This document shows positions 15,121 to 41,797 of a DNA stretch of 64,000 nucleotides, piece after piece. Within the stretch, counting starts at the first letter, position 1. The number at the start of each line of letters is the position of its first letter. A program made the position numbers and the translations under genes. The stretch lies in assembly GCA_945859975.1 (NCBI GenBank), contig CAMAPH010000004.1:32001-96000 (forward strand), read 5' to 3'. The notes beneath the pieces are model-generated. The model was not told the origin of the DNA. It worked only from the letters and a program-made list of their open reading frames with translations, and did not search any database. Source of the stretch: Chthonomonas calidirosea. GTDB lineage: Bacteria; Armatimonadota; Fimbriimonadia; Fimbriimonadales; Fimbriimonadaceae.

Positions 15121-15154
15121 GTTAACACTGCCTTAACGTCGTGTCAGACAGAAT
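15121..15154 (+). promoter_or_regulatory. Pho-box-like 11-bp direct repeats plus -10 element upstream of alkaline phosphatase
   Basis: GTTAAC(15121), CTTAAC(15132), GTCAGA(15143) at 11-bp period; CAGAAT at 15149-15154, 6 nt before ATG. Confidence 0.7.
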
Positions 15155-15160
15155 GAGGGG

Positions 15161-16690
15161 ATGAAGTTTTCGCGACGTTCACTTTTAGGCACCGGTCTTG
15201 CGGGTGCTGCTGGCATCGCATCCGGCGCTGGCGCGTTTGCGTCCTTGCAGGGCTACGGCGCGAAGCAGTCGAAGATCAAGAACATCATTTTCTTGGTCGT
15301 TGATGGCATGGCCCACCAGACGATGGGAATGGTCGACGTGCTTAGCCAGTTGAACGCCGGAAAGTCGTCTTACTGGGGTTGGCTGATGGACCAAAAGTTC
15401 GTGACGAACGGTCTGCAGGCCACCCAATCCCTCAACTCAATTGTTACCGACTCGGCCGCGGCGAGCTCGGCCTGGGGGAGCGGTCAGCACATTTTCAACG
15501 GGATGATCAACATGTATCCCGATCAGACCGCTTTAAAGACGCTGACGACTTTGATGCACGAGAAGGGCGTCCGAACCGGCCTTGTGACGACGACCACGAT
15601 TACGCACGCGACTCCATCGGGCTTCGCTGTTTCGATCATCAATCGCGACCTTGAACCGATCATCGCCGAGAAGTACCTGACCTCCGGCGTGGACGTTTTG
15701 ATGGGCGGCGGTAACCGACACTTTGCGGGCGACAAGCGCAAAGACAAGCGCGACATGTATCCCGAGTTTGAAAAGGCGGGCTATACGGTGGTTAAAGATC
15801 GTGACACGCTGATGAAGACCAAGAGCAAGAAGGTGCTTGGCATCTTCTCCGAGAGCCACCTTCCGTTCTCGGTCGACCGAAACAACAGCGCAGAACTTCA
15901 GAAAACGGTCCCGACCTTGGCCGAGATGACGAAGCACGCGATCGAGAATCTCAAGGACAGCAAGAACGGGTTCCTGCTTCAAGTTGAAGGCGGCAAAGTT
16001 GACCACGCTGGCCACGCGAACGACCTCGCTTCCATCGTTTACGATCAGATCGCTTTCGAAGAAGCCGTCAAGGTTGCGGTTGAGTTTGCGCTTAAGGACA
16101 AGGAGACCCTGGTCATCATTACCGCCGACCACGCCACCGGCGGGCCATCGGTAAACGGCATGGGCGACGAGTACGTGGATTCCAACAAGGGACTCATGAG
16201 CGTTAACGGAATGAAGGCGAGCTACGAAGTGCTGGCCCGAAAGTTTGGCGCCAGCCCAACCGCAGATTCGATTCGCGACATCATCAAGGCCGTTCTTGGT
16301 CTCGAGCTGAGCGCGGCCGAAGCGTCTGCGATTGTGGCCGGGCAAAAGGGCCAAGGGCCATTCAACATTAGCGGGTTCCTGAAGGCGAGCGGAATGACAA
16401 TGGCCAATATCTTGGGCAACCACACTGCGGTCACCTGGACGAGCGGAAACCACACCGCCGAGCATGTGCTCGTGACAGCGCTAGGACCTGGCAGCGAGAT
16501 GATCAAGGGACTCACCCGCAACGTTGAGTTCTTCGACTTCATGTTGGCGGCTAAAGGCATCAAGCACAAGAATCCGACGATGGACTACGCCACCGCGCAA
16601 GGCCATTACGAGAAAATGAAGCTGAGCCTTGACCAGGAATGGATTGAAATGTATTCTGTGCATGAAGATTGCGGTTGCCACCACGGCTAA
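15161..16690 (+). CDS. Tat-exported alkaline phosphatase (PhoA-type)
   Basis: SRRSLL signal; IIFLVVDGM, VTDSAAA (catalytic Ser), THATP, EGGKVDHAGHAND, TADH. Confidence 0.93.
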   Translation: MKFSRRSLLGTGLAGAAGIASGAGAFASLQGYGAKQSKIKNIIFLVVDGMAHQTMGMVDVLSQLNAGKSSYWGWLMDQKFVTNGLQATQSLNSIVTDSAAASSAWGSGQHIFNGMINMYPDQTALKTLTTLMHEKGVRTGLVTTTTITHATPSGFAVSIINRDLEPIIAEKYLTSGVDVLMGGGNRHFAGDKRKDKRDMYPEFEKAGYTVVKDRDTLMKTKSKKVLGIFSESHLPFSVDRNNSAELQKTVPTLAEMTKHAIENLKDSKNGFLLQVEGGKVDHAGHANDLASIVYDQIAFEEAVKVAVEFALKDKETLVIITADHATGGPSVNGMGDEYVDSNKGLMSVNGMKASYEVLARKFGASPTADSIRDIIKAVLGLELSAAEASAIVAGQKGQGPFNISGFLKASGMTMANILGNHTAVTWTSGNHTAEHVLVTALGPGSEMIKGLTRNVEFFDFMLAAKGIKHKNPTMDYATAQGHYEKMKLSLDQEWIEMYSVHEDCGCHHG

Positions 16691-31047: not shown

Positions 31048-31341
31048 GTGGTCAGCTCTGCGCTCGCACGGTTCAAGTTCATCGGAATGCTCGAAGGCGC
31101 GTCGTTCCTCATCCTTCTTCTCATCGGAATGCCGCTGAAATACATCGCAAAGATGCCGGAGGCGGTTTACATCACGGGAAGTCTGCACGGCTTCTTGTTC
31201 GTGGTGTACATCATCGCCCTTTTGCTCGCCTGGAACAAAGAAAAGTGGCCGTTCAAAACCGCCTTCTTCGCCGGAGTCGCTTCCGTGCTCCCGCTCGGCC
31301 CGTTCGTTTTCGACCGCTGGCTAGAAAAGCAAAAGGCCTAG
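31048..31341 (+). CDS. DUF3817 family membrane protein
   Basis: EGASFL...GMPLKY, HGFLF, ASVLPLGPF. Confidence 0.85.
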   Translation: MVSSALARFKFIGMLEGASFLILLLIGMPLKYIAKMPEAVYITGSLHGFLFVVYIIALLLAWNKEKWPFKTAFFAGVASVLPLGPFVFDRWLEKQKA

Positions 31342-32111
31342 CTCTTCAGAATCTGGACTTCAATCTTTCGGAACTGAACTGGGTGGCTCTCGGACTGAAG
31401 GCTGATCGTGCCTTCCGGAATAAGAAGCTGACCGTCTCGGATCAGCTTCTTGCCATCGGCATCTTTCGGATCAAGCTGCGGCTTCGAATATCGCATCACT
31501 TCTTCGCCGTTGATGCGATGGATGATCTCGCCCTTGCCGTGAACCTCCACCTCGGCGGTCACCCACTGTTCGCCCGGGAAAGTCTTGGAAGTTGACTCCG
31601 TACAATGTTGCGTGTGCAGCTTGCCCTTGTATTCCACATTAGTGCCGGGCGTGCAAAGGTTAGCCGTAGATCGAGTCTGGCCGGCATCGGCACCCAGAAA
31701 CTGGACTTCGATCGAAACCGGGAAGTCCTGATCGAGTCCGATCGTTTCCGGTCGCTGACCGTGGATCATAAAGCCCGAATTCTTGTATGCCCACCCCGGA
31801 CCGCCCTTGCACTGCTCGCCAATGAACCGGTACTCCGCCCGAATCTTATAGCTGCCGTACGGCACTTTGTAATACAAATGCCCATACCGCTCGTTGAAGT
31901 TATCGTACTTTTCGTAGCCAACCGTGATCGCGCCGTCTTGGACCCGGAAGGTGTTGCCGAAGTTGTCACCCAGCTTATAGCCCTTGATCTTCGGCGTCCA
32001 GCCGCTCAGGTCTTTCCCGTTGAAAATGGAGAACCAGTGGCCATCCAAAGTGGAATTGGCCACGGTTGGAGCCAGAAACAGGGCAGCGAGAAGAGCGACC
32101 GGGGCACGCAT
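31338..32111 (-). CDS. Secreted DUF1080 (3-keto-disaccharide hydrolase family) protein
   Basis: FNGKDLSGW, NSG, IEVQ, LQSE..PVQFRKI; ATG 32111 lies 6 nt after TAGCGT. Confidence 0.88.
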   Translation of the reverse strand: MRAPVALLAALFLAPTVANSTLDGHWFSIFNGKDLSGWTPKIKGYKLGDNFGNTFRVQDGAITVGYEKYDNFNERYGHLYYKVPYGSYKIRAEYRFIGEQCKGGPGWAYKNSGFMIHGQRPETIGLDQDFPVSIEVQFLGADAGQTRSTANLCTPGTNVEYKGKLHTQHCTESTSKTFPGEQWVTAEVEVHGKGEIIHRINGEEVMRYSKPQLDPKDADGKKLIRDGQLLIPEGTISLQSESHPVQFRKIEVQILKS

Positions 32112-32136
32112 CACACAACGCTACCCCGAACGATGG

Positions 32137-34527
32137 TCAGTCTTCGTCGCGAACGTCCATCCCGAACCGGCGAACCGCGCCCGGATACGGCACGTTGCCC
32201 TTCACGCTCCGCCAAATCGCTTCGTTCAAAGCGATTTCCTGGCTCAGCGTCAACTGGTCGGGCTCGGAGAAGTCGATCGCTGCGAGCAGCGGAGTTTCTT
32301 TCGCCGCCGGATTCTTAGCTTCGAGGTCCGTCTTCGGCCGCTTGGCCACATACGGCGTGAGATCTGGCTTGTTGTGGAAGCTGCGATACATCGGCGTCGC
32401 CGCGGCATCGAACTGGCTCATCGGCTGCAGGCCCAGGATCAACTCGATGGTTCGGACGGTCGAAGTCGTCGTGTAGTGAGTTCGGTCCAGGCCCGAGTTC
32501 CGGGTGTACGGAGAAATCACGAGGCTGACCGTTCGGTGCGCGTCCACGTGGTCGGGACCGTTTTGCGCGTCGTCTTCCAGAACGAAGATTGCGAACTTCG
32601 ACCAGTAACTGCTCTTGGAGATCGTCTCAACGAGCTTGCCAAGACCGTAGTCGTTGCTTGCCACCGATGCCTGTGGGGTAAAGGCTCCGGCCCGGGTTCC
32701 ACTCGTGTGGTCTTCGCTCAGGGCCATCACCATGAAGTCCGGCATGGTCTTCTTCGCTTCGAATTCCTTGAACTCGTTGATGAAGATGTCGACCGCTTTG
32801 TAGTCGCGCTCGTTCTTTGATCGCGCCGAAGCCCAGGCGTCGCTGCGCCGATCGGTGGTGTGATAGTAGTAGGTTCGATATGTCTTCCCGGCCCGACGAA
32901 CCTGGTCCCAGATGAAGCCCGATGGGGTCGTCGAGAGTTCCAAGCTCAACCGCGGTGTTCCCTTTCCGCTGTACTGCTGCGGCCAGGTGCGCTGCATGAA
33001 GTCCGGAACGTAAGCGCCCTTACTCCAATGGTGCCCGTCAACCGAGACTTCTCCGCTCGCATAAAAGTTGTCTTGTAGAACGAAGTCCATTGCCAGTTGG
33101 CGGTGGTTCGGGGCGACGTCTTCTCCGAACAAAGTCAGTTTCGGATCACCGTTACCGTACGGCTTCCCGTTCTTCTTCAGGTCGCCGAACATCTGGTCGT
33201 AGGTTCGGTTTTCCTTGATGATGTACAGAACGTGCTTGATCGGCGATGGGTCGCCGAGGCGACTTGGGATTGGGCTCGTGCCAGCTTTCGGCGCGGTCAG
33301 TGGCTTTTCCACGACGCCTTCTCGGTACGGCGACAGATCGCGGACCTGCTTCGACATCTTGTCCAGCTCCGCTCCCTTCGGCACATCGACCTTTGTGAGC
33401 AGGCCTTTGAGGAGAACAACGATGTACGGATATCCCTTTGGCGCGATTGGATCGATCTTCTCGGTGTCGCCGTTCGGTCCGGTTCCATACCCTTTACCAG
33501 CAGCAGCAAGGAGCGTCTTGCCATCGGCGAGCACGCCGAGCGCGGTCGGATAAGCGCCGGTCGGAACAAACCCTTCCACCCGGGTCGCCATTCGGTCGGC
33601 GATATTCAAGATTCCGACGCAGTTGTTGTCTGAGTTTGCTACGTAGAGTCGCTTTCCGTCGGCGGTCAGGGCCAGTGCATGCGGGGTGGAGCCGGCCGGC
33701 GCATTGGGCCAAGGTCGGGTGTTGATTCGCTCTTCCCGCGTGCCGGTGTAGAGGTCGAAGATGTCAACCGTGTCGTCGTTTCCGCATGAGACAAAAAGTC
33801 GATCGCCCTGCACGAGCAGGTCGTTCGGGTGCCGTCCGGTTGCGTAGCTCTTCGTGATCGTGAATTCCGTCGCGTCGATTCGGATGGCTCGCTCTGCGCC
33901 TTGAAGCGAAACGAGCATGTCGTAGCCCACGCGTCGAACCTGGTGCGGAGATGACCCAACCGGCAACGCCAGCTTAGCGACGGACGCGCCCGTTTCGAGG
34001 TCAATCTTGCGGAGCTCATCTCCGGCCGCAAGGGCGACGACAACATACTTTTCATCCGCCGTTAGCTGTAACCCAGCCAGCCAGCCGGTGTTGCCCTTGA
34101 TCTCGGTAACCGGCAAAGTCTTTTCGAGTTTGAGTTCTCCATCCAGCGCGACCGAAACGATGTGAATGTTATTCCCGGTCCCGCCGCTCACCACGAGCTT
34201 GCTCGAATCTGCCATCCAAGCCATGCCGATCCACGCGCGGCCGAGGCTTAACTTCTTGGCAACTTTGCCCGTAGCAGCATCGACTACGAAGAGCTGATGA
34301 CTCCCTTGCCCCGCCGAAACGAAAGCGATCCATTTTCCGTTCGGGCTTGACACCCCACCCGCCGCGAGGTCGCCAATGGTTTCGCTCGGACCTGCCGGGG
34401 AGATTCGCCAACCAGAAGGGAGATAGGTCGCTACTTTCGGCTGAAAAGCGGTGAACGCAACGGCCGAGGCAACAACGGCGATTCCGGCGATGAGAGTTAG
34501 CTTCTTGTTCATTTCTGGGATTCTCAC
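32137..34527 (-). CDS. Secreted YncE-type beta-propeller / alkaline-phosphatase-superfamily phosphoesterase
   Basis: Propeller repeats then IKHVLYIIKENRTYDQMFGD, DNFY..GEVSVDGH, DHT, EDDAQNGPDHVDAHR; start GTG 34527 or ATG 34512. Confidence 0.88.
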   Translation of the reverse strand: MRIPEMNKKLTLIAGIAVVASAVAFTAFQPKVATYLPSGWRISPAGPSETIGDLAAGGVSSPNGKWIAFVSAGQGSHQLFVVDAATGKVAKKLSLGRAWIGMAWMADSSKLVVSGGTGNNIHIVSVALDGELKLEKTLPVTEIKGNTGWLAGLQLTADEKYVVVALAAGDELRKIDLETGASVAKLALPVGSSPHQVRRVGYDMLVSLQGAERAIRIDATEFTITKSYATGRHPNDLLVQGDRLFVSCGNDDTVDIFDLYTGTREERINTRPWPNAPAGSTPHALALTADGKRLYVANSDNNCVGILNIADRMATRVEGFVPTGAYPTALGVLADGKTLLAAAGKGYGTGPNGDTEKIDPIAPKGYPYIVVLLKGLLTKVDVPKGAELDKMSKQVRDLSPYREGVVEKPLTAPKAGTSPIPSRLGDPSPIKHVLYIIKENRTYDQMFGDLKKNGKPYGNGDPKLTLFGEDVAPNHRQLAMDFVLQDNFYASGEVSVDGHHWSKGAYVPDFMQRTWPQQYSGKGTPRLSLELSTTPSGFIWDQVRRAGKTYRTYYYHTTDRRSDAWASARSKNERDYKAVDIFINEFKEFEAKKTMPDFMVMALSEDHTSGTRAGAFTPQASVASNDYGLGKLVETISKSSYWSKFAIFVLEDDAQNGPDHVDAHRTVSLVISPYTRNSGLDRTHYTTTSTVRTIELILGLQPMSQFDAAATPMYRSFHNKPDLTPYVAKRPKTDLEAKNPAAKETPLLAAIDFSEPDQLTLSQEIALNEAIWRSVKGNVPYPGAVRRFGMDVRDED

Positions 34528-35387
34528 TTGCCCGCTTCGACCTTCGGAAGCGTGCTGACGATATCACGAAGCATCTTCTGCTCCTTCACGACAACTTGAG
34601 CCATAAGCTCGTCTACCTTTGCCTGCTTGGCCTCATCCGCCAGAGGCTTCTTGATGGCCACATCTTCGATCTCGGCCTTGCTCAGCCCAGCTTCTTTGCC
34701 GACCTCGCCGATCACGTTTCCAAGCTGGGTGCTCTGCTTCTCTCGGTACGACTTGCTCCAGCTCTTAAAGGCCGCCTGGTCTTTCTCCCAAGCCTTCGCG
34801 ATCTCCGGCGCGGACTTTGTGTAGTGCTTGATGCCGTCGGTGTACACCTGATTGATCAGCGACACGCCAGAAGCGACGCTCAGCGTGGTAATCGGCTCGA
34901 GCCCAATGATTCGGTAGCTCGCGAGCCTTAGCGCGGCAAAGTAATCGCTCGCGTCCTTGCCTTTCTCGGTCGCAAGCTTCTCACCGTGATTGGAGAGCGC
35001 GCGCAGAACGCTCAAACTCGACTCGTTCTCATAAGCCGGGAGCTCAGGGATGTAGTGAATGACATCCTTCTTTTCGTTGCCGGCAAGAAGCGACTTCAAA
35101 GCAGCGGATGTGTCGCCTTCCTTTGCGGCGACGGCGGCGCGAAGATAGTCCGTAAATCCGTTCTCGGGTTTCGCTTCTTCGGCGGTTTTCAGATACTCAC
35201 GCGCTTTTGCGGGTTCGAAGCTGGCGGTTTCGGAAACGCCCTTGAATGCGGCCCCTACCGTTGCATCAACATATTTCTGGTCCGGCGATTCGTTGGACTT
35301 CAGAATGTCTCCCCCGCGGGAGGCCCAAAGAAATCCGGCGACGGCCAAGAGAACGAATGCGATGGCGGGTAAGAACTTTTTTATCAT
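34524..35387 (-). CDS. Hypothetical exported alpha-helical protein
   Basis: N-terminal hydrophobic anchor, Lys/Ala-rich helical body; stop overlaps next gene start. Confidence 0.75.
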   Translation of the reverse strand: MIKKFLPAIAFVLLAVAGFLWASRGGDILKSNESPDQKYVDATVGAAFKGVSETASFEPAKAREYLKTAEEAKPENGFTDYLRAAVAAKEGDTSAALKSLLAGNEKKDVIHYIPELPAYENESSLSVLRALSNHGEKLATEKGKDASDYFAALRLASYRIIGLEPITTLSVASGVSLINQVYTDGIKHYTKSAPEIAKAWEKDQAAFKSWSKSYREKQSTQLGNVIGEVGKEAGLSKAEIEDVAIKKPLADEAKQAKVDELMAQVVVKEQKMLRDIVSTLPKVEAGK

Positions 35388-35422
35388 GGGTGGGCTGCGC
35401 AAAGAGTAGCGGTTTTGCCGAG

Positions 35423-35453
35423 AAAAGGGTCCATCCCTTCCGGAATGGACCCT
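35423..35453 (-). terminator. Hairpin / weak terminator after prepilin-like gene 1
   Basis: AGGGTCCAT/ATGGACCCT stem, short T-run on the minus strand. Confidence 0.65.
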
Positions 35454-35469
35454 GAGTTACGCGTTGACC

Positions 35470-36372
35470 TTATCGGTCGCAGCCGGCTTCTTTGACAGGG
35501 AAGCCGCAGTAATCTCTGCTCTCGGTTTCCCAATAGGTGAAGATTCCAGCCTGCTGGTATTCCCAAACGAGCTGTCGGATGGACTTCGCGGTGCCGGTGC
35601 TGGTTCGGTAATCCAGTTCCTTCTGGTACTTCGCGTGACCGTCTGCGAACGACCAGTTTCGGCCGCCCGTGTGTCGCTGTCCTCGCTCCCATCGACCGGT
35701 TCCGTTTCCGAGGTTGCCATAACCTGGGACGGTGTACCAACCGGAGAAGTTGAGGCCGCTGACTCGGGTCGAACCAACGTCGGTCGAGTAGAACATGTTG
35801 GCTGGCGTACCGATCTGGCTGAGGTTTCGGCCTCGATCGCCGGTCCATGGGCCCTCGCTGACTCGTCGGTAGCCTGGCATCAGAAGGTAGTTACCAGCGT
35901 ACGACGCAGGAAGAACCTTAACGAACTCGAGTCCGTTGTTGACGTCGGCCATGCCAACGTAAGCGCCTGGGACGCCAGCCGCCAAGAACATCTTTTCGAA
36001 GCAGCCTTCACCTGGCTTTCCGAAAACGCCCTTGTCAGCGTCGGCTGGACAAGCGATCATCTGCCAGTTCTTGCTGTATGGGAAGATGCCGGTGAGGAAG
36101 CTCTGAACACCCGAGAATTCGTCGTTGAGACCAGCGGTTCCGCCTGGAGCCGAGCAGGGTCCGATCCAGCCGGTTTCAGGAAGCATGTCATCGTAATCCG
36201 AGCTATAAAGAATAACCGCGGTACCGATCTGCTTCTGGTTGCTCAAAGATGTGGTTTTCTTTGCCGCTGCCTTGGCCTGGGCGAAAACTGGGAATAGGAT
36301 GGCGGCGAGAATCGCAATAATCGCGATAACGACGAGAAGTTCAATTAACGTAAAAGCATGCTTCTTGTGCAC
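35470..36372 (-). CDS. Prepilin-type N-terminal cleavage/methylation protein (DUF1559-like, H-X9-DG)
   Basis: KKHA-FTLIELLVVIAIIAILAAILFPVFAQAK; C-terminal H-TGGRNWSFA-DG; GGAG SD upstream. Confidence 0.93.
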   Translation of the reverse strand: MHKKHAFTLIELLVVIAIIAILAAILFPVFAQAKAAAKKTTSLSNQKQIGTAVILYSSDYDDMLPETGWIGPCSAPGGTAGLNDEFSGVQSFLTGIFPYSKNWQMIACPADADKGVFGKPGEGCFEKMFLAAGVPGAYVGMADVNNGLEFVKVLPASYAGNYLLMPGYRRVSEGPWTGDRGRNLSQIGTPANMFYSTDVGSTRVSGLNFSGWYTVPGYGNLGNGTGRWERGQRHTGGRNWSFADGHAKYQKELDYRTSTGTAKSIRQLVWEYQQAGIFTYWETESRDYCGFPVKEAGCDR

Positions 36373-36420
36373 AATAGTCTCCTCCGGCTACCCGGACTGC
36401 CTAGCATAGGCATCGACCTT

Positions 36421-36484
36421 GTTAAGCAAGGGTTAAGTTTTCGTTAAATCGTTCATAACAAATGAACCTTAACAGCATGTTAAC
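36421..36484. promoter_or_regulatory. Back-to-back Pho-box-like arrays in the divergent promoter region
   Basis: GTTAAG(36421), GTTAAG(36432), GTTAAA(36443) read as three YTTAAC on the minus strand; CTTAAC(36468), GTTAAC(36479) on plus; all 11-bp period. Confidence 0.75.
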
Positions 36485-36508
36485 CGTCAAAGGCGGCTTA
36501 CTTAGCTT

Positions 36509-36865
36509 ATGCGACGACTCATTTGGGCGGTTCTTCTGCTATCGGCTTTTGCACTAGTTGGGTGTGGAGAGTCCTCGGCACCGGTAAGCAGCGAGCAGAC
36601 CCGAGAAATGACCAGCACCCCATGGGGGATGTTCAGCGGCACCGGAAGAAGCGAAGGCATGCAAGTTCAATTTGATGCTGGAAACGAGATGACCTTCACC
36701 GATTCGACCGGCGCAAAGTCCGGAACGTACACCATGGACGAGGCAGCAAAACAGATCACCGTTGACCTCAATGGGCAGAAGCAAGTGTGGGGTTACAAGC
36801 GAGATGGCCTGAATCTAGAGATCACCTTCCAGGATGGTCGCACCGGCACGTTCACGATGCAGTGA
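36509..36865 (+). CDS. Hypothetical lipoprotein
   Basis: Lipobox LVGC, beta-rich 118-aa protein. Confidence 0.8.
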   Translation: MRRLIWAVLLLSAFALVGCGESSAPVSSEQTREMTSTPWGMFSGTGRSEGMQVQFDAGNEMTFTDSTGAKSGTYTMDEAAKQITVDLNGQKQVWGYKRDGLNLEITFQDGRTGTFTMQ

Positions 36866-36872
36866 TCGAAGT

Positions 36873-36889
36873 CTTAACAAATGCTTAAC
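36873..36889 (+). promoter_or_regulatory. Pho-box-like repeat overlapping the halogenase start
   Basis: CTTAAC(36873)-AAATG-CTTAAC(36884). Confidence 0.55.
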
Positions 36890-38581
36890 TATGACGTCGC
36901 AATCATCGGGGGCGGTCCTGCCGGGAGTACGCTCGGTACCTTAATCAAGAAGTACGCACCAGATGCTTCCGTAGTCATATTGGAACGCGAGCAGTTTCCC
37001 CGTGAGCATGTCGGGGAAAGCCAGCTACCCCTTATCGGAAGCATCCTCGATGAGATGGGAGTCTGGGAGAAAGTCGAAGCCGCCAACTTCCCCATCAAAA
37101 TAGGCGCCACCTACCGCTGGGGCAAAACGGACGACCTTTGGGATTTCGAGTTTCTCCCGGGCAAAGACTTCGTCGGCGGAGATCGTCCGGCAAAGTACGA
37201 AGGTGAACGCCGCAAGACCGCATTCCAGGTCGAACGGTCCATCTACGACAAAATCCTCCTCGACCACGCCCGAGAATGCGGCTGCGAAGTTCGAGAAAAC
37301 ACGTCCGTCACCCAAGTTCTCCATGAGGGCGGGGCGGTTACCGGACTCCAGACCACAGGCGGTGAAGTCAAAGCCAAATACTATGTCGACGGAAGCGGAA
37401 ATGCCGCGATCCTTCGCCGCGCACTTGGCGTTACGGTTGACGAACCAAGCCGACTGAAGAACGTCGCCTTCTGGTCCTATTGGGACGATGCCGAGTGGGC
37501 GGTGACCCTTGGCAAGGGTGGAACGCGGGTCAATGTCATGAGTCTCGGGTACGGCTGGCTCTGGTTCATCCCGATCTCCGCCACCCGAGTCAGCGTCGGC
37601 CTCGTTCTCCCTGCCGATGCGTACAAAGCCAAGAAGCTCCGCCCAGAAGATCTGTACCTTGAGGCGATCCAGAGCGAAGCGCTGATTTCGAAGCTCTTAA
37701 GAAACGCGACTCAACATGGACCCGTCCACGGAACAAAGGACTGGTCCTTCGTTGCCAACCAAATGGCCGGGCCGAACTGGTACTTGGTTGGGGAAGCTGC
37801 CGGATTTGCTGATCCCATCCTCGCCGCCGGTCTCACTCTCACCCACACCGGTGCACGCGAGCTTGCGTACATCCTTGTGGATCACCTGAAAGGAACAAAT
37901 GATCGCGATTGGCTGGCTTCGCACTACCAAGTCACCCAACAAAAGCGGATTCGCCAGCACATCCGCTTTGCAGACTACTGGTACACCGCCAACGCTCACT
38001 TCTCCGAACTCAAGGAGTTCGTCACCGAAATCGCAAAAGACGCGGGATTGGAGCTGACGCCGAACGAAGCCTTCCAGTGGCTCGGTACTGGCGGATTCAT
38101 CAACGATGACTGGCGCGTGGCGCGGGTAGCAACGTTCGCCCTTGGCGCGACCAAGCAGCTCACCCAGTTCTTCGGCGAAGGCGATTCCACTTGGGAAATT
38201 TCGAAGTTCAGCCGCTTCCGAGCTAATCTTGCGGGTGCCGAAGTCGAGACCGTCCCCGCGTTCCACATGGGCCAAATCTTGCTTAAGCAGTCTCTCCGCC
38301 GAGGTGAGGAAGTGCTGCCTCTGGTCGGCGTCTACCAAAAGTTGGCCGACTTTCTACAGCTCGAACGTACCGCGCAAGAGGTTCAAACCTTTCTATCGAT
38401 CACATGCCCGTCCCCGGTGGCGTATACCAACGGCATCGAAGTCTTCGAAGCGATGCTCGTTGCCGGCTGGGTCACCGGCCGCTGCGGGGCCGGCATACCA
38501 GGGTTCGAAATCCGCACTCCCGACCAGTCCGAGGTTCTACATCTGAACAATGATCAAGTAGAACCAATGATGAATTCTTAA
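36881..38581 (+). CDS. Flavin-dependent halogenase family protein
   Basis: GGGPAG FAD motif, FPREHVGES, FPIK (position of catalytic Lys), WLWFIP (WxWxIP), GEAAGFADP. Confidence 0.85.
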   Translation: MLNYDVAIIGGGPAGSTLGTLIKKYAPDASVVILEREQFPREHVGESQLPLIGSILDEMGVWEKVEAANFPIKIGATYRWGKTDDLWDFEFLPGKDFVGGDRPAKYEGERRKTAFQVERSIYDKILLDHARECGCEVRENTSVTQVLHEGGAVTGLQTTGGEVKAKYYVDGSGNAAILRRALGVTVDEPSRLKNVAFWSYWDDAEWAVTLGKGGTRVNVMSLGYGWLWFIPISATRVSVGLVLPADAYKAKKLRPEDLYLEAIQSEALISKLLRNATQHGPVHGTKDWSFVANQMAGPNWYLVGEAAGFADPILAAGLTLTHTGARELAYILVDHLKGTNDRDWLASHYQVTQQKRIRQHIRFADYWYTANAHFSELKEFVTEIAKDAGLELTPNEAFQWLGTGGFINDDWRVARVATFALGATKQLTQFFGEGDSTWEISKFSRFRANLAGAEVETVPAFHMGQILLKQSLRRGEEVLPLVGVYQKLADFLQLERTAQEVQTFLSITCPSPVAYTNGIEVFEAMLVAGWVTGRCGAGIPGFEIRTPDQSEVLHLNNDQVEPMMNS

Positions 38582-38611
38582 CAGTCACTTAACGCAATGG
38601 CGGAATACTCT
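38577..38611 (+). promoter_or_regulatory. Pho-box-like repeat plus candidate -10 upstream of prepilin-like gene 2
   Basis: CTTAAC(38577)-AGTCA-CTTAAC(38588), then TACTCT at 38606. Confidence 0.7.
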
Positions 38612-38641
38612 TGCCCATCTGCGATTCCGCAGGTGAGCAAT

Positions 38642-39625
38642 ATGAAAAAGGCATTCACCCTCATCGAACTTTTGGTTGTTATTGCAATCATCGCAATCCT
38701 GGCCGCCATTCTCTTCCCTGTTTTCGCTCAGGCAAAGCAGGCCGCTAAGAAGACTGCCGACCTCAGCAACACCAAGCAGATCGGTCTCGGACTTCAGCTT
38801 TACATCGCAGACACGGACGACATGTTCCCGCCAAGCAACCACCGCGAGAACAACTCGTCGGCGAACGAAGTTCACTGGAGCTGGATGATTCTTCCTTACA
38901 TCAAGAGCGAGCAGCTGTTCGTTTCTCCAGCCGACACGATTGGCGGATGGGCACCGGGTTGCTTCAACGAAGCAAACAACAACCGAGGTTTCGGCAAGCC
39001 AGGAATCCAGCTTAATGGCTGCGTTCAGCAGGGCTACCAGGCTGGCGTCTTCACCCTTCAGGTCGGACGAATCTCCTACGTTGCTAACCAGGCCATCATC
39101 GGTCGAAAGCGACAAGACAGCGACACGTCGAACGTTGTTAGCTCAACCGCGATCGACGGCGTGAGCTCCACCATCCTCGTTGCACCAGCCACCGAAAAGC
39201 AGTTCTGCATGCAGACCACGGCCGGCGGCGAATTCCGCAGCTACCGACCAGCTTTCGGTATCGGACGAAGCGGACAGCGAGACCTCAGCGGTTCTTCGCT
39301 TCCTTCCGCAGCTGACCTTCCGCTCGAAGCACTCACCGTTAGCGGCGCAAACACCGCCACCGGAAAGTGGGCTGGAAAGGGCACCGTCGGTCAGGTCTTC
39401 GATTGCGAACTCCGAACCACCAACGGCGGCGCAACCCACACCCTTCGATACACGAACGGTGGCCGATTCGACCAGGGCAACAACTACGTCTTCGCAGACT
39501 CGTCCGCGAAGTTCCGAAACACGTTGCAGACCTTCGATGTCCGCAACTACGCTTGGGGCAAGCAGGCCTACTCGCTCGGCGGCAGCGTTGTTGTCGACCC
39601 AGCGACCGGCTTCCCAGTCAACTGA
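38642..39625 (+). CDS. Prepilin-type N-terminal cleavage/methylation protein (DUF1559-like)
   Basis: MKKA-FTLIELLVVIAIIAILAAILFPVFAQAK; AGGTGA SD; C-terminal F-DQGNNYVFA-DS variant of H-X9-DG. Confidence 0.93.
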   Translation: MKKAFTLIELLVVIAIIAILAAILFPVFAQAKQAAKKTADLSNTKQIGLGLQLYIADTDDMFPPSNHRENNSSANEVHWSWMILPYIKSEQLFVSPADTIGGWAPGCFNEANNNRGFGKPGIQLNGCVQQGYQAGVFTLQVGRISYVANQAIIGRKRQDSDTSNVVSSTAIDGVSSTILVAPATEKQFCMQTTAGGEFRSYRPAFGIGRSGQRDLSGSSLPSAADLPLEALTVSGANTATGKWAGKGTVGQVFDCELRTTNGGATHTLRYTNGGRFDQGNNYVFADSSAKFRNTLQTFDVRNYAWGKQAYSLGGSVVVDPATGFPVN

Positions 39626-39645
39626 GCTTAAGCTCACATTCACGC

Positions 39646-39675
39646 GATGGCTACCGGGTACACCCGGTAGCCATC
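39646..39675. repeat. Perfect 13-bp intergenic hairpin between prepilin gene and phytase
   Basis: GATGGCTACCGGG-TACA-CCCGGTAGCCATC, no U-tract. Confidence 0.75.
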
Positions 39676-39692
39676 ACTGCGTCTACACCGCC

Positions 39693-40685
39693 ATGATCCA
39701 CGCCATCCTTCTTGCCGCCATCCCCTTCATCCCGCCAACGCTGGCCACCCAGCCGGTGCCCGACGATGCCGATGACCCCGCGATTTGGGTCAACAAATCC
39801 AATCCTTCGCAATCCCGCGTGATTGGGACCAACAAGGTTAAGCGACCAACCGGCGGACTTTACGTTTTCGACCTCGACGGCAAGGTCGTCCAAAAAATCT
39901 CTGGGCTGGATCGACCGAACAACGTCGACATCTATCAAAACTGGAACGGGCTCGATATCGCCGTTTGCACGGAGCGACTGCAGGGACGACTTCGAATCTA
40001 TAAAATCGATCCTAAGGGCACCCTGTCCGACCTCACCGGCAACACCGACGTCGCGATGAAAGGCACGGCCGACTACGGCGAGCCCATGGGCATCGCCCTT
40101 TGGAAATCGAAAATCACCGGCAACGTCTACGCCCTCGTGTCCCCTAAGCTCGGTCTGGCGGAGTCGTATCTGGAGCAATACCAGCTTAAGATGAACCCGG
40201 CGACCGCGAAAGTTGACGCGATCTTCGTCGGACGTACCGGCCAGTTCCTCGGCGGAAAAGAGATCGAATCGATCGCAACCTCGGTCGATGGGATCAGCGC
40301 CTTCTACAGCGACGAAACCTATGGCAATCGCCAACTCGTTCTTCAAGACCGCCCAAACGGCTACATGGACGCCCGTCCCGCCTGGAACACGGACTTCAAA
40401 GGCGACCACGAAGGCATTGGCCTTTGGGAGAAAGGCGCAAAACGATTCGCGGTCTTTACCGATCAGTTGAAGGACCGGAGCGTTTACACCGTGACCTCGT
40501 TCACCGGAACGCGACTCGGCCAGTTCACCGCTGGCGCAGATGAAACCGACGGCATCGCGGTCAGCTCCGCAAACCTAGGGCCAAAGTTCCCAGATGGCCT
40601 AATGGTGGTGATGGACAGCAAGAATCGGCGTTTTCTTTATTTGGGCTGGCGCGAGATCGCGCGAACGCTCAAACTAAAGAACTGA
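39693..40685 (+). CDS. Beta-propeller phytase
   Basis: DADDPAIWVN, IGTNK, RPNNVD, DHEG, DETDG, FPDGLMVV; start ATG 39693 with signal-like N-terminus. Confidence 0.9.
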   Translation: MIHAILLAAIPFIPPTLATQPVPDDADDPAIWVNKSNPSQSRVIGTNKVKRPTGGLYVFDLDGKVVQKISGLDRPNNVDIYQNWNGLDIAVCTERLQGRLRIYKIDPKGTLSDLTGNTDVAMKGTADYGEPMGIALWKSKITGNVYALVSPKLGLAESYLEQYQLKMNPATAKVDAIFVGRTGQFLGGKEIESIATSVDGISAFYSDETYGNRQLVLQDRPNGYMDARPAWNTDFKGDHEGIGLWEKGAKRFAVFTDQLKDRSVYTVTSFTGTRLGQFTAGADETDGIAVSSANLGPKFPDGLMVVMDSKNRRFLYLGWREIARTLKLKN

Positions 40686-41797
40686 TGCCAGAAACCGAGA
40701 AGCCAGAGCACGAACGACCGGCGAGCCCCTGGGCGTTCCAGGTCGCGGTCGTTGCTGGCATCCCCGTTCGGCTTCACATCACGTTCCTCCTGTTCCTCGT
40801 TTGGATCGGCTGGACCGGTCAAAGCCAATCCGGTTGGCAATGGCCGATCTACGTTCTCGCGGTGTTCTTCTGCGTCGTGCTTCACGAATTCGGCCACGCC
40901 CTGACCGCCAAAAAGTACGGCATCAAAACCACGAACATCACGCTTTATCCGATCGGCGGAGTGGCGATGCTAGAAAGTCGCCCGACCGCAAAGCAGGAGC
41001 TTTGGGTGACCATCATGGGGCCAGCGGTGAACGTCGTCATCGCCGGGTTGCTGTACCTCTACATGTGGATTTCGCCGCAGCAGTTTCAGCTGACCAGCGA
41101 CATTCGCGTCGGCGGAATTCTGCCTGCGCTCTTTTTCACAAACATCTCCCTTGCCTTGTTTAATCTCATCCCGGCGTTCCCGATGGATGGAGGAAGGATT
41201 CTGCGCGCCGCGCTTTCGCTTCGATTGGGCGAGTTGCGAGCGACCCGGATCGCGGCCGGAGTTGGCCAAGTTGTCGCCATCGGGCTTGGCGTTGCGGGCA
41301 TCATCACCAGCCAGGTGATCCTGATGTTAATCGCCTTCTTCGTTTTCCTGGTAGCAGGGCAAGAGCTCACCTCGACCGTCACCCGATCTCTCCTGGCGGG
41401 CCGAAAAGTTCGCGATGCGATGATGCGAAACTTCGCCACTCTCCCGCACGGAACCACCCTTCAAGAAGCCAGCGAATTGCTGATCGCGGGCAGCCAAACC
41501 GACTTTCCCGTGACCTCGGGCAGCGACGTGCTCGGAATTCTCGAACGAAGCGAACTATCCATTGGCCTCACCGAAGATGGCCCCCACGCTTACGTTGCCG
41601 GTCGGATGAACCGTAACGCCAACCGTTGCCGACCCGATGACGACCTAGAGTGGGCCGCCGAACAATTCGCCGCCGCCGGAAGACGTCCCGTGCTTGTCAT
41701 GGAAGGCGACGACCTTGTGGGCATGCTCACTCAGGAGAACCTGAGCGAGTTCATCATGCTCCAAGACGCTGCCTCGCGCCGGAAAAAGACTGGCTAA
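40685..41797 (+). CDS. Site-2 protease (M50) with CBS domains
   Basis: HEFGH, GPAVN, NLIPAFPMDGGR; C-terminal CBS pair. Confidence 0.93.
   Translation: MPETEKPEHERPASPWAFQVAVVAGIPVRLHITFLLFLVWIGWTGQSQSGWQWPIYVLAVFFCVVLHEFGHALTAKKYGIKTTNITLYPIGGVAMLESRPTAKQELWVTIMGPAVNVVIAGLLYLYMWISPQQFQLTSDIRVGGILPALFFTNISLALFNLIPAFPMDGGRILRAALSLRLGELRATRIAAGVGQVVAIGLGVAGIITSQVILMLIAFFVFLVAGQELTSTVTRSLLAGRKVRDAMMRNFATLPHGTTLQEASELLIAGSQTDFPVTSGSDVLGILERSELSIGLTEDGPHAYVAGRMNRNANRCRPDDDLEWAAEQFAAAGRRPVLVMEGDDLVGMLTQENLSEFIMLQDAASRRKKTG

Follow-up and report, generated by a model that had tools for sequence, protein, structure and literature searches.

Large prepilin-like genes of a Fimbriimonadaceae genome belong to a predicted Pho regulon and are partly paired with exported phytase and phosphoesterase genes

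The locus described here lies in a 64,000-nucleotide stretch of DNA (the window) from the genome of Chthonomonas calidirosea (family Fimbriimonadaceae; GenBank assembly GCA_945859975.1, contig CAMAPH010000004.1, positions 32,001 to 96,000). It contains two large genes for type IV prepilin-like proteins, hereafter prepilin 1 and prepilin 2, the first followed by genes for an exported helical protein and a secreted phosphoesterase and the second by a gene for a secreted phytase; each prepilin gene is preceded by repeats with an 11-bp period. We propose, with a probability of about 0.5, that prepilins carrying this repeat are Pho-controlled, pilin-anchored organophosphate capture proteins, which would work with exported hydrolases and PstSCA and depend on type IV filament machinery provided in trans. 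The host genome (3.12 Mb, 95.8% complete) is labelled G000 and the window C4:32001-96000; the genomes compared carry similar labels (G014, G045, G020, G157, G024 and so on) and are assigned to families f1, f2, f4 and f5. Kin genomes are non-independent samples throughout, so that cross-genome counts are not to be read as probabilities.

A first-pass annotation of the window had described a mirror-image locus of nine genes under Pho box control, with a TTAAC array of 11-bp period at each prepilin gene and a hairpin behind it. All nine genes were found where it had placed them, on the same strands, and both hairpins are real (0 of 200 shuffles were equally good). Each prepilin gene does have its own array, the locus as a whole having four of them rather than two (Table 1). 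All four are oriented with their own gene, and those of prepilin 1 and of the small lipoprotein are separate and divergent within the same intergenic region. Genome-wide, TTAA pairs occur 33 times at 11-bp spacing against 3 to 18 times at other spacings from 5 to 20 bp; further peaks are seen at 4, 21-22, 26 and 30 bp, those at 4, 26 and 30 bp probably reflecting dispersed repeats. Exact TTAA-N7-TTAA arrays, of which the genome has 31, precede pstSCA and genes for alkaline phosphatase, purple acid phosphatase, propeller phosphoesterase and an LpxH-like metallophosphoesterase. A Pho box matrix was built from five non-prepilin sites, a score of at least 14 being taken as positive. It returned 14.9-15.6 at a second GDPD-like gene, a phosphonate HD oxygenase gene and a phoB-like regulator gene of the host, and was positive before pstS in 23 of 29 relatives (0-2 for control spacings); high pstS scores came from f1, f4 and f5, three f2 genomes scored below 14 and two relatives offered little upstream DNA.

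The core of the host repeat agrees with the SphR box consensus CTTAACCT reported in PMC1906773, and the two have in common the CTTAAC core, the 11-bp period and the location before pstS and phoA. SphR, according to the relevant part of that source, needs at least three 8-bp units, whereas most host arrays consist of two exact units and the regulator is a candidate: one of three OmpR-type genes, the phoB-like gene at C4:103853-104527, is itself boxed (15.6), and its product matches TIGR02154 with 226 bits, below the cut-off of 296. The Pho box named by the first pass thus stood up on three counts, namely location before pstS and phosphatase genes, retention in relatives and an SphR-type core; judged by these features, the (C/G)TTAAC repeat of 11-bp period is a cyanobacterial-type Pho box. 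From motif and regulon we infer that phosphate (Pi) starvation very probably activates an OmpR-type regulator at these repeats.

Prepilin genes are heavily represented among the boxed genes. The matrix scored at least 14 upstream of 16 of the 50 large prepilin genes; among 2761 other genes, with the five training sites counted in, 37 reached this score. Searching for the exact pair instead gave upstream matches for 13 of 47 large prepilins and for 23 of 2803 other genes (odds ratio 46, p 2e-15), and at any other spacing from 5 to 24 bp no more than two prepilins were matched. As the 16 boxed pilins are about half as numerous as all other boxed genes, pilins would form a large share of the phosphorus response. 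The first-pass annotation had allowed that most prepilin genes might carry the motif whatever their neighbours; the motif is not general to prepilins, being absent from 34 of the 50. A search of 46 genomes of the genus for a box combined with a prepilin gave 61 matches, in 24 of the genomes; three control spacings summed to 14. A box scoring at least 14 stands in front of 20 of the 29 orthologues of prepilin 1 and 15 of the 27 of prepilin 2, and in a third family 24 of 28 members have one: as far as these upstream regions tell, the box tracks the pilin family and not the gene neighbourhood. Descent of the boxed prepilins from one expanded clade was also considered and is unsupported, their distribution over a weak prepilin tree (166 columns, 48 of 50 sequences) being scattered, with 12 changes against a shuffled mean of 12.9.

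Adjacency of pilin and phosphatase genes, which the first pass had predicted, is kept in relatives, though partially. A beta-propeller phytase gene is present in 25 of 60 relatives searched, and in 14 of the 25 a prepilin gene of the same orientation immediately precedes it: in the genus this holds for 11 of 15, in f2 for 2 of 2, in f5 for 1 of 1 and in f4 for 0 of 7; the background for a prepilin directly upstream is 1.1% in the host genome. Of 23 family genomes with a prepilin 1 orthologue, 13 have a propeller phosphoesterase beside it and one more has a metallophosphoesterase there. Among the phosphoesterase paralogues of the host, 3 of 8 have a prepilin within two genes, compared with 5.7% for any gene; pstS and alkaline phosphatase have no prepilin neighbour. 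Twenty-five pilins could be parsed from 29 pilin-phytase loci, and they fall into two unrelated head families only: A, the family of prepilin 2 (9 pilins), and B (16 pilins), which spans three bacterial families. Of 25 pilin-phytase loci folded, 16 have a stem of z <= -2 just behind the stop codon of the pilin gene. The two families meet in G014, which is 95-97% identical to the host on both flanks and in which a family B head with its own stem-loop replaces the prepilin 2 head. The exchanged block, 38752-39743 of the window by comparison with locus L037 of G014, extends between the pilin helix and the phytase signal peptide. One kind of pilin-phytase cassette has here been exchanged for another. 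Overall the pilin-phosphatase link, as recorded in gene order, is conserved, specific and partial.

Orthologues of prepilin 1 were found in 39 of 201 genomes of the order (its own included), in 23 of 147 family genomes and in 15 of 29 f4 genomes. Two of the 13 genomes with a flanking phosphoesterase use a different paralogue of that enzyme (36-38% identity). In the 17 closest loci the helical protein is encoded directly downstream in 13, a small lipoprotein divergently in 15 (12 of these 15 calls aligned with the window protein) and a halogenase in 4. The helical protein is itself a lipoprotein, with a lipobox cysteine, in most relatives (seven homologues found, two named loci). Neither it nor the small lipoprotein matched a Pfam family at E 0.01; for its fold there is a TPR-like lead only, and for that of the lipoprotein lipocalin/DUF5640-like leads, all below 0.9. 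In other genera the order of genes is phosphoesterase, lipoprotein, box, prepilin 1, helical protein.

These comparisons led us to reject the mirror-image locus as a conserved unit, its full layout having been seen only in G000, G014 and G045. On the evidence of gene order, the symmetry arose recently, when two older modules of the Pho regulon, each led by a large prepilin, came to lie side by side. Judging from the same comparisons, in the lineage of the window a halogenase gene was inserted downstream of the lipoprotein gene, the phosphoesterase gene was relocated to follow that of the helical protein, and the pilin-phytase-protease block came last. This block is absent from G020 and G157, and the DUF1080 gene follows the phosphoesterase in G014 and G045 and not in G020. 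The lipoprotein, which the first pass had assigned to the arm of prepilin 2, is instead the conserved divergent partner of prepilin 1. As for the rest of the two arms, the gene positions were right, and the halogenase, the DUF1080 protein and the protease look like passengers (an M50 protease lies close to the phytase in 5 of 25 relatives). The 5' ends of both prepilin genes (36257-36345 and 38666-38754) form an 80%-identical inverted repeat that flanks the lipoprotein-halogenase segment; the repeat was seen in the G014 comparison, and no inversion was observed among the three genomes with the full layout.

Both prepilins have a class III signal (basic leader, F+1, E+5, hydrophobic helix) and score above the cut-off for PF07963. 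Their -1 residue is alanine, which the eight small pilins encoded in the genome's own pilus cluster have as well. The DUF1559 profile, PF07596, matches prepilin 2 with 29.4 bits (cut-off 23.3), though only positions 2-65 of its 268 are covered, and prepilin 1 with 19.6 bits, below cut-off. The H-x9-DG motif of DUF1559 proteins is present in prepilin 1, where H228, D238, G239 and H240 are conserved; prepilin 2 reads F-x9-DS at the aligned position and so departs from the motif. The predicted model of prepilin 2 (predicted local distance difference test, pLDDT, 94.8) has PilA4 as its best structural match (Z 4.1, root-mean-square deviation 3.8, 120 aligned, residues 4-306), and 17 of its 19 structural matches are type IV pilins or pseudopilins, every one of them weak, with Z under 5; a Foldseek search of the whole model against the PDB and viral models gave nothing at E <= 0.001. 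The model suggests that the N-terminal helix of prepilin 2 and its C-terminal strands at the H-X9-DG position form a pilin core, into which a head of about 200 residues is inserted.

Head families are strongly conserved, with 50-80% identity across genera. Twelve basic residues are conserved at 90% or more in 28 family A heads, and the invariant polar residues of that family are E76, H78, R143, R155, K156, R157 and R202; those of family B are N146-E147-H148, E170, D173, E175, E177, D179, E180 and H220. The conserved residues could serve phosphate binding, directly or through calcium, or catalysis. Prepilin 1 was modelled by AlphaFold with a pLDDT of 40 alone and 82-86 in complex runs. Its predicted complex with the helical protein scored 0.37 against 0.00 for the best of three controls. 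On this scale 116 of 157 solved complexes attained the mark for a complex, as did 2 of 215 mismatches; with values of 0.60 or less it was attained by only 18 of the 157 and by both mismatches. Contacts agreed between runs to at least 69%, with a partner pLDDT of at least 81. These predictions are a weak indication that the helical protein may partner prepilin 1.

The capture mechanism that we propose would involve two kinds of module, one composed of prepilin 1, the helical (lipo)protein, the small lipoprotein and the propeller phosphoesterase, the other of a prepilin and a phytase. Under Pi starvation an OmpR-type regulator would act at the CTTAAC 11-bp repeats, and the stem-loop behind each pilin gene might allow more pilin than enzyme to be made. 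The prepilin would be processed and kept in the envelope by its pilin helix, presumably through type II secretion system (T2SS) or type IV pilus machinery encoded elsewhere. Its inserted head would bind a class of organophosphates and pass them to, or hold them near, the exported hydrolase; candidate ligands are phytate or related polyphosphorylated compounds for the phytase-linked heads and phosphoesters for prepilin 1. PstSCA would then import the Pi released. We trust the parts of this scheme to different degrees. A nutrient-specific acquisition role of the boxed pilins is likely, and the head is somewhat more apt to bind than to catalyse. Passage of the ligand through a secretin by filament retraction is doubtful, and of all the steps it can claim the least support. 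A pilin can help iron acquisition without a pilus, according to passages of PMC13170364, so that a filament need not act here.

Pilus machinery is absent from the 24-52 kb portion of the window that was checked, in line with the first pass, and is present in trans on other contigs. Besides a full T2SS cluster, the host genome carries two pilus clusters, at least two secretins, four PilB/GspE ATPases and four PilT-family ATPases. Three of the PilT-family genes stand in tandem (C38:8165-11575) and the fourth is on C13; eight tandem, near-identical 124-residue pilins lie inside a pilB-pilC-pilM-secretin cluster (C6:52911-57276, locus L183). An NCBIfam search of the genome gave no prepilin peptidase match; a motif that we take to be that of the peptidase is the sole hint of one. 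A search for TonB-dependent receptors likewise gave no PF00593 or PF07715 match in the host genome, at its completeness of 95.8%. By analogy with the phosphate-utilisation loci of Bacteroidetes, there is an even chance that the pilin holds the slot of the TonB-dependent receptor/SusCD pair. A wider proposal, on which we place little weight, is that in Armatimonadota, and by extension in those bacteria of the Planctomycetes-Verrucomicrobia-Chlamydiae (PVC) group that have DUF1559/H-X9-DG paralogues by the dozen, the type IV filament acts as a general nutrient importer replacing TonB-dependent receptors. It would amount to a single secretin-ATPase machine with interchangeable pilin receptors, each under its own switch (Pho box, LacI, thiamine pyrophosphate (TPP) or B12 riboswitch), an arrangement that we put forward only tentatively. 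Seven prepilin loci without a box come after LacI-type regulators, and three of these are also neighbours of glycoside hydrolases.

Several observations weigh against organophosphate capture. Eleven of the 25 phytases, all seven of f4 included, have no prepilin directly upstream. Among the best 29 prepilin 2 orthologue loci, a phytase adjoins 9 (one convergent) and in 1 is split across contigs, another phosphatase adjoins 2, and 17 have no recognised phosphatase within 1.5 kb. The best 30 family B loci divide evenly: 15 have a phytase and 15 neither phytase nor other recognised phosphatase within 1.5 kb. All ten f4 orthologues of prepilin 1 that were fetched are without a phosphatase neighbour, and nine of the ten keep the box. 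In the host itself, 11 of the 16 boxed prepilins have no phosphorus enzyme within two genes and 5 have one, in a scan that covered 77 of 91 neighbours. A strict pairing of each pilin with its own hydrolase, beyond the loose analogy to a paired binding protein and hydrolase that the first-pass annotation had drawn, therefore does not hold, the more so as in G014 an unrelated head precedes the same phytase. In the heads, the basic invariants of family A fall to two (R155 and R202) in a 64-sequence alignment, and the invariant motif of family B is acidic and would equally fit a metal or catalytic site. TonB-dependent receptors occur in 31 of 61 relatives searched, at one to three per genome. Pho control of the secretion machinery had to be rejected, since a box scoring at least 14 precedes gspE in only 2 of 29 loci and the other ATPase genes score under 9. 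Finally, the binding, processing, surface exposure and transport of these pilins are all steps that we infer.

Of four other explanations, the one that fares best is that the boxed pilins are starvation-induced adhesins whose heads grip phosphorus-rich particles or surfaces (Ca- or Fe-phytate, apatite, cell debris) with no inward carriage. The type IV pilin core would suit adhesion, as would the exchange of heads between near-identical genomes, which is expected for exposed proteins, and the fact that most boxed pilins have no enzyme neighbour; type IV-like pili have been proposed for glycan attachment in Akkermansiaceae (PMC13174399, in the passages concerned). The regulation of sister prepilins argues the other way. 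The only TPP riboswitch found in the genome (68 bits, C2:19231-19337) lies directly upstream of one large prepilin gene, and a sub-threshold match to the cobalamin riboswitch (27.8 bits against a cut-off of 31.5, C1:51086-51226) directly upstream of another. Small-solute capture fits sister prepilins under TPP and probably B12 riboswitch control better than adhesion does. The heads, moreover, are well conserved across genera, unlike antigenically variable adhesins. We regard adhesion as unlikely.

Alternatively the prepilins could be adaptors for secretion or display, each a cargo-specific pseudopilin that routes the neighbouring enzyme or lipoprotein through the T2SS or tethers it at the surface. 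A complete T2SS exists in the genome, the pilin-lipoprotein neighbourhoods are constant, prepilin 1 and the helical protein are predicted, weakly, to touch, and in Caulobacter a T2SS releases a lipoprotein under Pi starvation (described in part of PMC2996285). An adaptor dedicated to its cargo would hardly come in two unrelated versions before the same phytase, the enzymes of the two genomes being 96% identical; nor would prepilin 1 be expected with varying phosphoesterase paralogues or none, or lone riboswitch-controlled pilins without obvious cargo. This makes adaptors quite unlikely. That the inserted domains are hydrolases or metal enzymes on a pilin anchor, the boxed prepilins being new phosphatases themselves, would account for the dense invariant polar residues of families A and B and for boxed pilins without enzyme neighbours. 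A binding site yields the same pattern of conservation, and many unrelated heads under unrelated switches would demand as many new catalytic folds; we consider catalytic heads very unlikely. The least likely account is a general starvation response of the envelope, with Pho control real, pilins unrelated to particular phosphorus compounds and clustering due to shared promoters: the recent mirror arrangement, an adjacency of 40-60% that is not obligate and the entry of halogenase and protease genes without a link to phosphorus into the same operons agree with it, but phytases are preceded by just two of the many head families, one of which does so in three bacterial families, the pilin-phytase order survived a swap between head families, and pstS and alkaline phosphatase of the host have no prepilin neighbour.

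Organophosphate capture by pilins would have parallels in two known systems. In Flavobacterium, passages of PMC8115612 describe Pi-starvation loci (phosphate utilisation systems, PUS/PusCD) in several unrelated versions, and also a TonB-dependent transporter gene beside a 3-phytase gene (Fjoh_1367/1368). Such loci and ours have in common an envelope component for capture or transport encoded with exported phosphatases, and in both cases there are parallel carbohydrate loci of the same layout. They differ in that SusC/TonB-dependent transporters and SusD were not found in the host, where the slot is taken by a prepilin-like protein and small lipoproteins, and in that PUS induction was measured (PMC8115612) and induction in the host is deduced from the box. 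The bindosome of Sulfolobus, as presented in parts of PMC4471445, shares class III signal peptides on substrate-binding proteins and an uptake that needs type IV filament machinery; its proteins bind sugars and it has dedicated Bas machinery. Unlike it, the host has a head inserted in a pilin core, no dedicated machinery in the locus, a diderm envelope and phosphorus as the nutrient. By analogy, the locus would work like both PUS loci and the bindosome, yet it fails defining features of each. An operon of receptor and phytase is not described in the relevant passages of PMC9414882.

Other relatives are closer in one respect each. The MUL2 type IV-like pilus of Akkermansiaceae is likewise tied to nutrient use, and is a single conserved locus for a glycan machinery in the parts of PMC13174399 that deal with it, compared with the many dispersed and separately regulated pilins of the host. 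ElpS of Caulobacter combines Pho control, a lipoprotein and type IV-family machinery (PMC2996285, relevant sections), with T2SS genes in its locus; the host T2SS is elsewhere and has no conserved box. The DUF1559 (PF07596, 'SBP_bac_10')/H-X9-DG paralogues of Planctomycetes have the same N-terminal architecture and also form a large family, of 68 members in Planctopirus limnophila (PMC10632474). They are annotated as solute-binding in passages of PMC2754498 and PMC4807772 and called proteins of 'unknown function' in PMC10632474; the relevant passages of these three sources assign them no ligand, regulator or partner, to which the host adds a Pho box and phosphatase partners. In the open literature, taken without subscription papers and supplements, no paper was found that links DUF1559/H-X9-DG proteins to the Pho regulon or to phytases, or that treats DUF1559 together with prepilins. 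The solute-binding label is thus already in print; the phosphorus arm, its cross-genome test and the phytase pairing of two families are new. A search with prepilin 2 found 175,405 cluster representatives, most of them on account of the shared N-terminus, and the cultured Fimbriimonas ginsengisoli carries a prepilin 1 homologue (P0168, 54% identity). Among T2SS loci, the Hxc/LapA system of Pseudomonas is reportedly also a Pi-starvation T2SS with a phosphatase, again with the T2SS genes in the locus.

Table 1. Features of the prepilin-phosphatase locus (window positions)
Feature	Position	Strand	Evidence or remark
DUF1080/PF06439, 3-keto-disaccharide hydrolase; probable passenger	31338-32111	-	Pfam
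Secreted beta-propeller + phosphoesterase PF04185	32137-34512	-	Pfam; 8 paralogues in genome
Exported all-helical protein, no Pfam family; candidate partner of prepilin 1	34524-35387	-	
Stem-loop with U run 3' of prepilin 1; terminator-like or stabilising	35413..35440	-	z -3.2
Prepilin 1, H-X9-DG type IV prepilin-like, 300 aa	35470-36372	-	PF07963 36.9 bits
Pho box array of prepilin 1, three (C/T)TTAAC units, 11-bp period (36421, 36432, 36443)	36421..36448	-	Matrix score 21.1, highest seen
Pho box array of divergent lipoprotein operon, two units (36468, 36479)	36468..36484	+	Also in G014, G045, G020
Small beta-rich lipoprotein, no Pfam family; divergent partner of prepilin 1	36509-36865	+	
Box-like pair overlapping halogenase start codon (36873, 36884)	36873..36889	+	Lineage-restricted
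Flavin-dependent halogenase, PltA/CmlS/CndH type	36881-38581	+	
Pho box array of prepilin 2, two CTTAAC units (38577, 38588)	38577..38593	+	Score 21.1
Prepilin 2 (head family A), 327 aa	38642-39625	+	
Perfect stem-loop between prepilin 2 and phytase, without U run	39642..39682	+	z -6.5
Secreted beta-propeller phytase PF02333, genome's single copy	39693-40685	+	89 bits; Bacillus phytase structures E 2e-22
Site-2 (M50) protease + CBS domains; probable passenger	40685-41797	+	Pfam

An Rfam scan of the window returned three tRNAs and nothing more, and a sigma-70 scan gave 2 sites against 3.6 expected. Sixteen kb to the left of the locus lies a gene for an alkaline phosphatase (15161-16690; PhoA-like, scoring under the NCBIfam cut-off) that has a Pho box of its own (15121-15137). 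Elsewhere in the genome, strongly boxed genes encode a secreted DUF7948 protein (C78:381-2795) and the LpxH-like metallophosphoesterase (C18:10870-11691), which we take to be possibly a lipid-remodelling enzyme of the PlcP type. An uncharacterised secreted family recurs beside boxed pilins or phytases (loci L282, L291, L298, L144 and L147); its main domain had no Pfam match in the three members scanned. It is a candidate for a new phosphorus-scavenging enzyme.

The halogenase contains GxGxxG, WxWxIP and the FPxK lysine of PltA, which we presume to be the catalytic lysine, and PltA is the closest among solved structures. The exact box pair at its start is found in G014 and is absent from G045, G020 and G157. 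Throughout the genus, halogenases of this kind reach 16 copies per genome, and 13 of 28 loci have a prepilin, mostly unboxed, within 1.5 kb. The halogenase was therefore rejected as a phosphorus gene; it is a multi-copy companion of prepilin-lipoprotein cassettes, usually without a box. Cassettes of prepilin, small lipoprotein and halogenase often adjoin LacI regulators, and in G024 a prepilin is found no more than about 5 kb away from seven of the nine halogenase copies (of the other two, one was viewed with 1.5-kb flanks only). PltA is a carrier-protein-dependent enzyme, and the halogenase also resembles, below cut-off, the protein maturases QhpG and LodB. Because of these likenesses, it may modify the pilin or the lipoprotein. 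Other tailoring enzymes, TPR-sulfotransferases and a biopterin-dependent aromatic amino acid hydroxylase, are encoded downstream of prepilin-lipoprotein pairs (L153, C1:144603-146474; L159, C8:61757-62665; L049; L050).

Taken together, these results define a Pho box for Fimbriimonadales and tie three head families to the Pi-starvation signal, two of them to phytase. In Planctomycetes and related phyla, few unexplained paralogue families are as large as that of the DUF1559/H-X9-DG proteins, and this family now gains specific phosphorus compounds, phytate first, as candidate ligands. If uptake by the filament should prove true, it would constitute a new route across the outer membrane.

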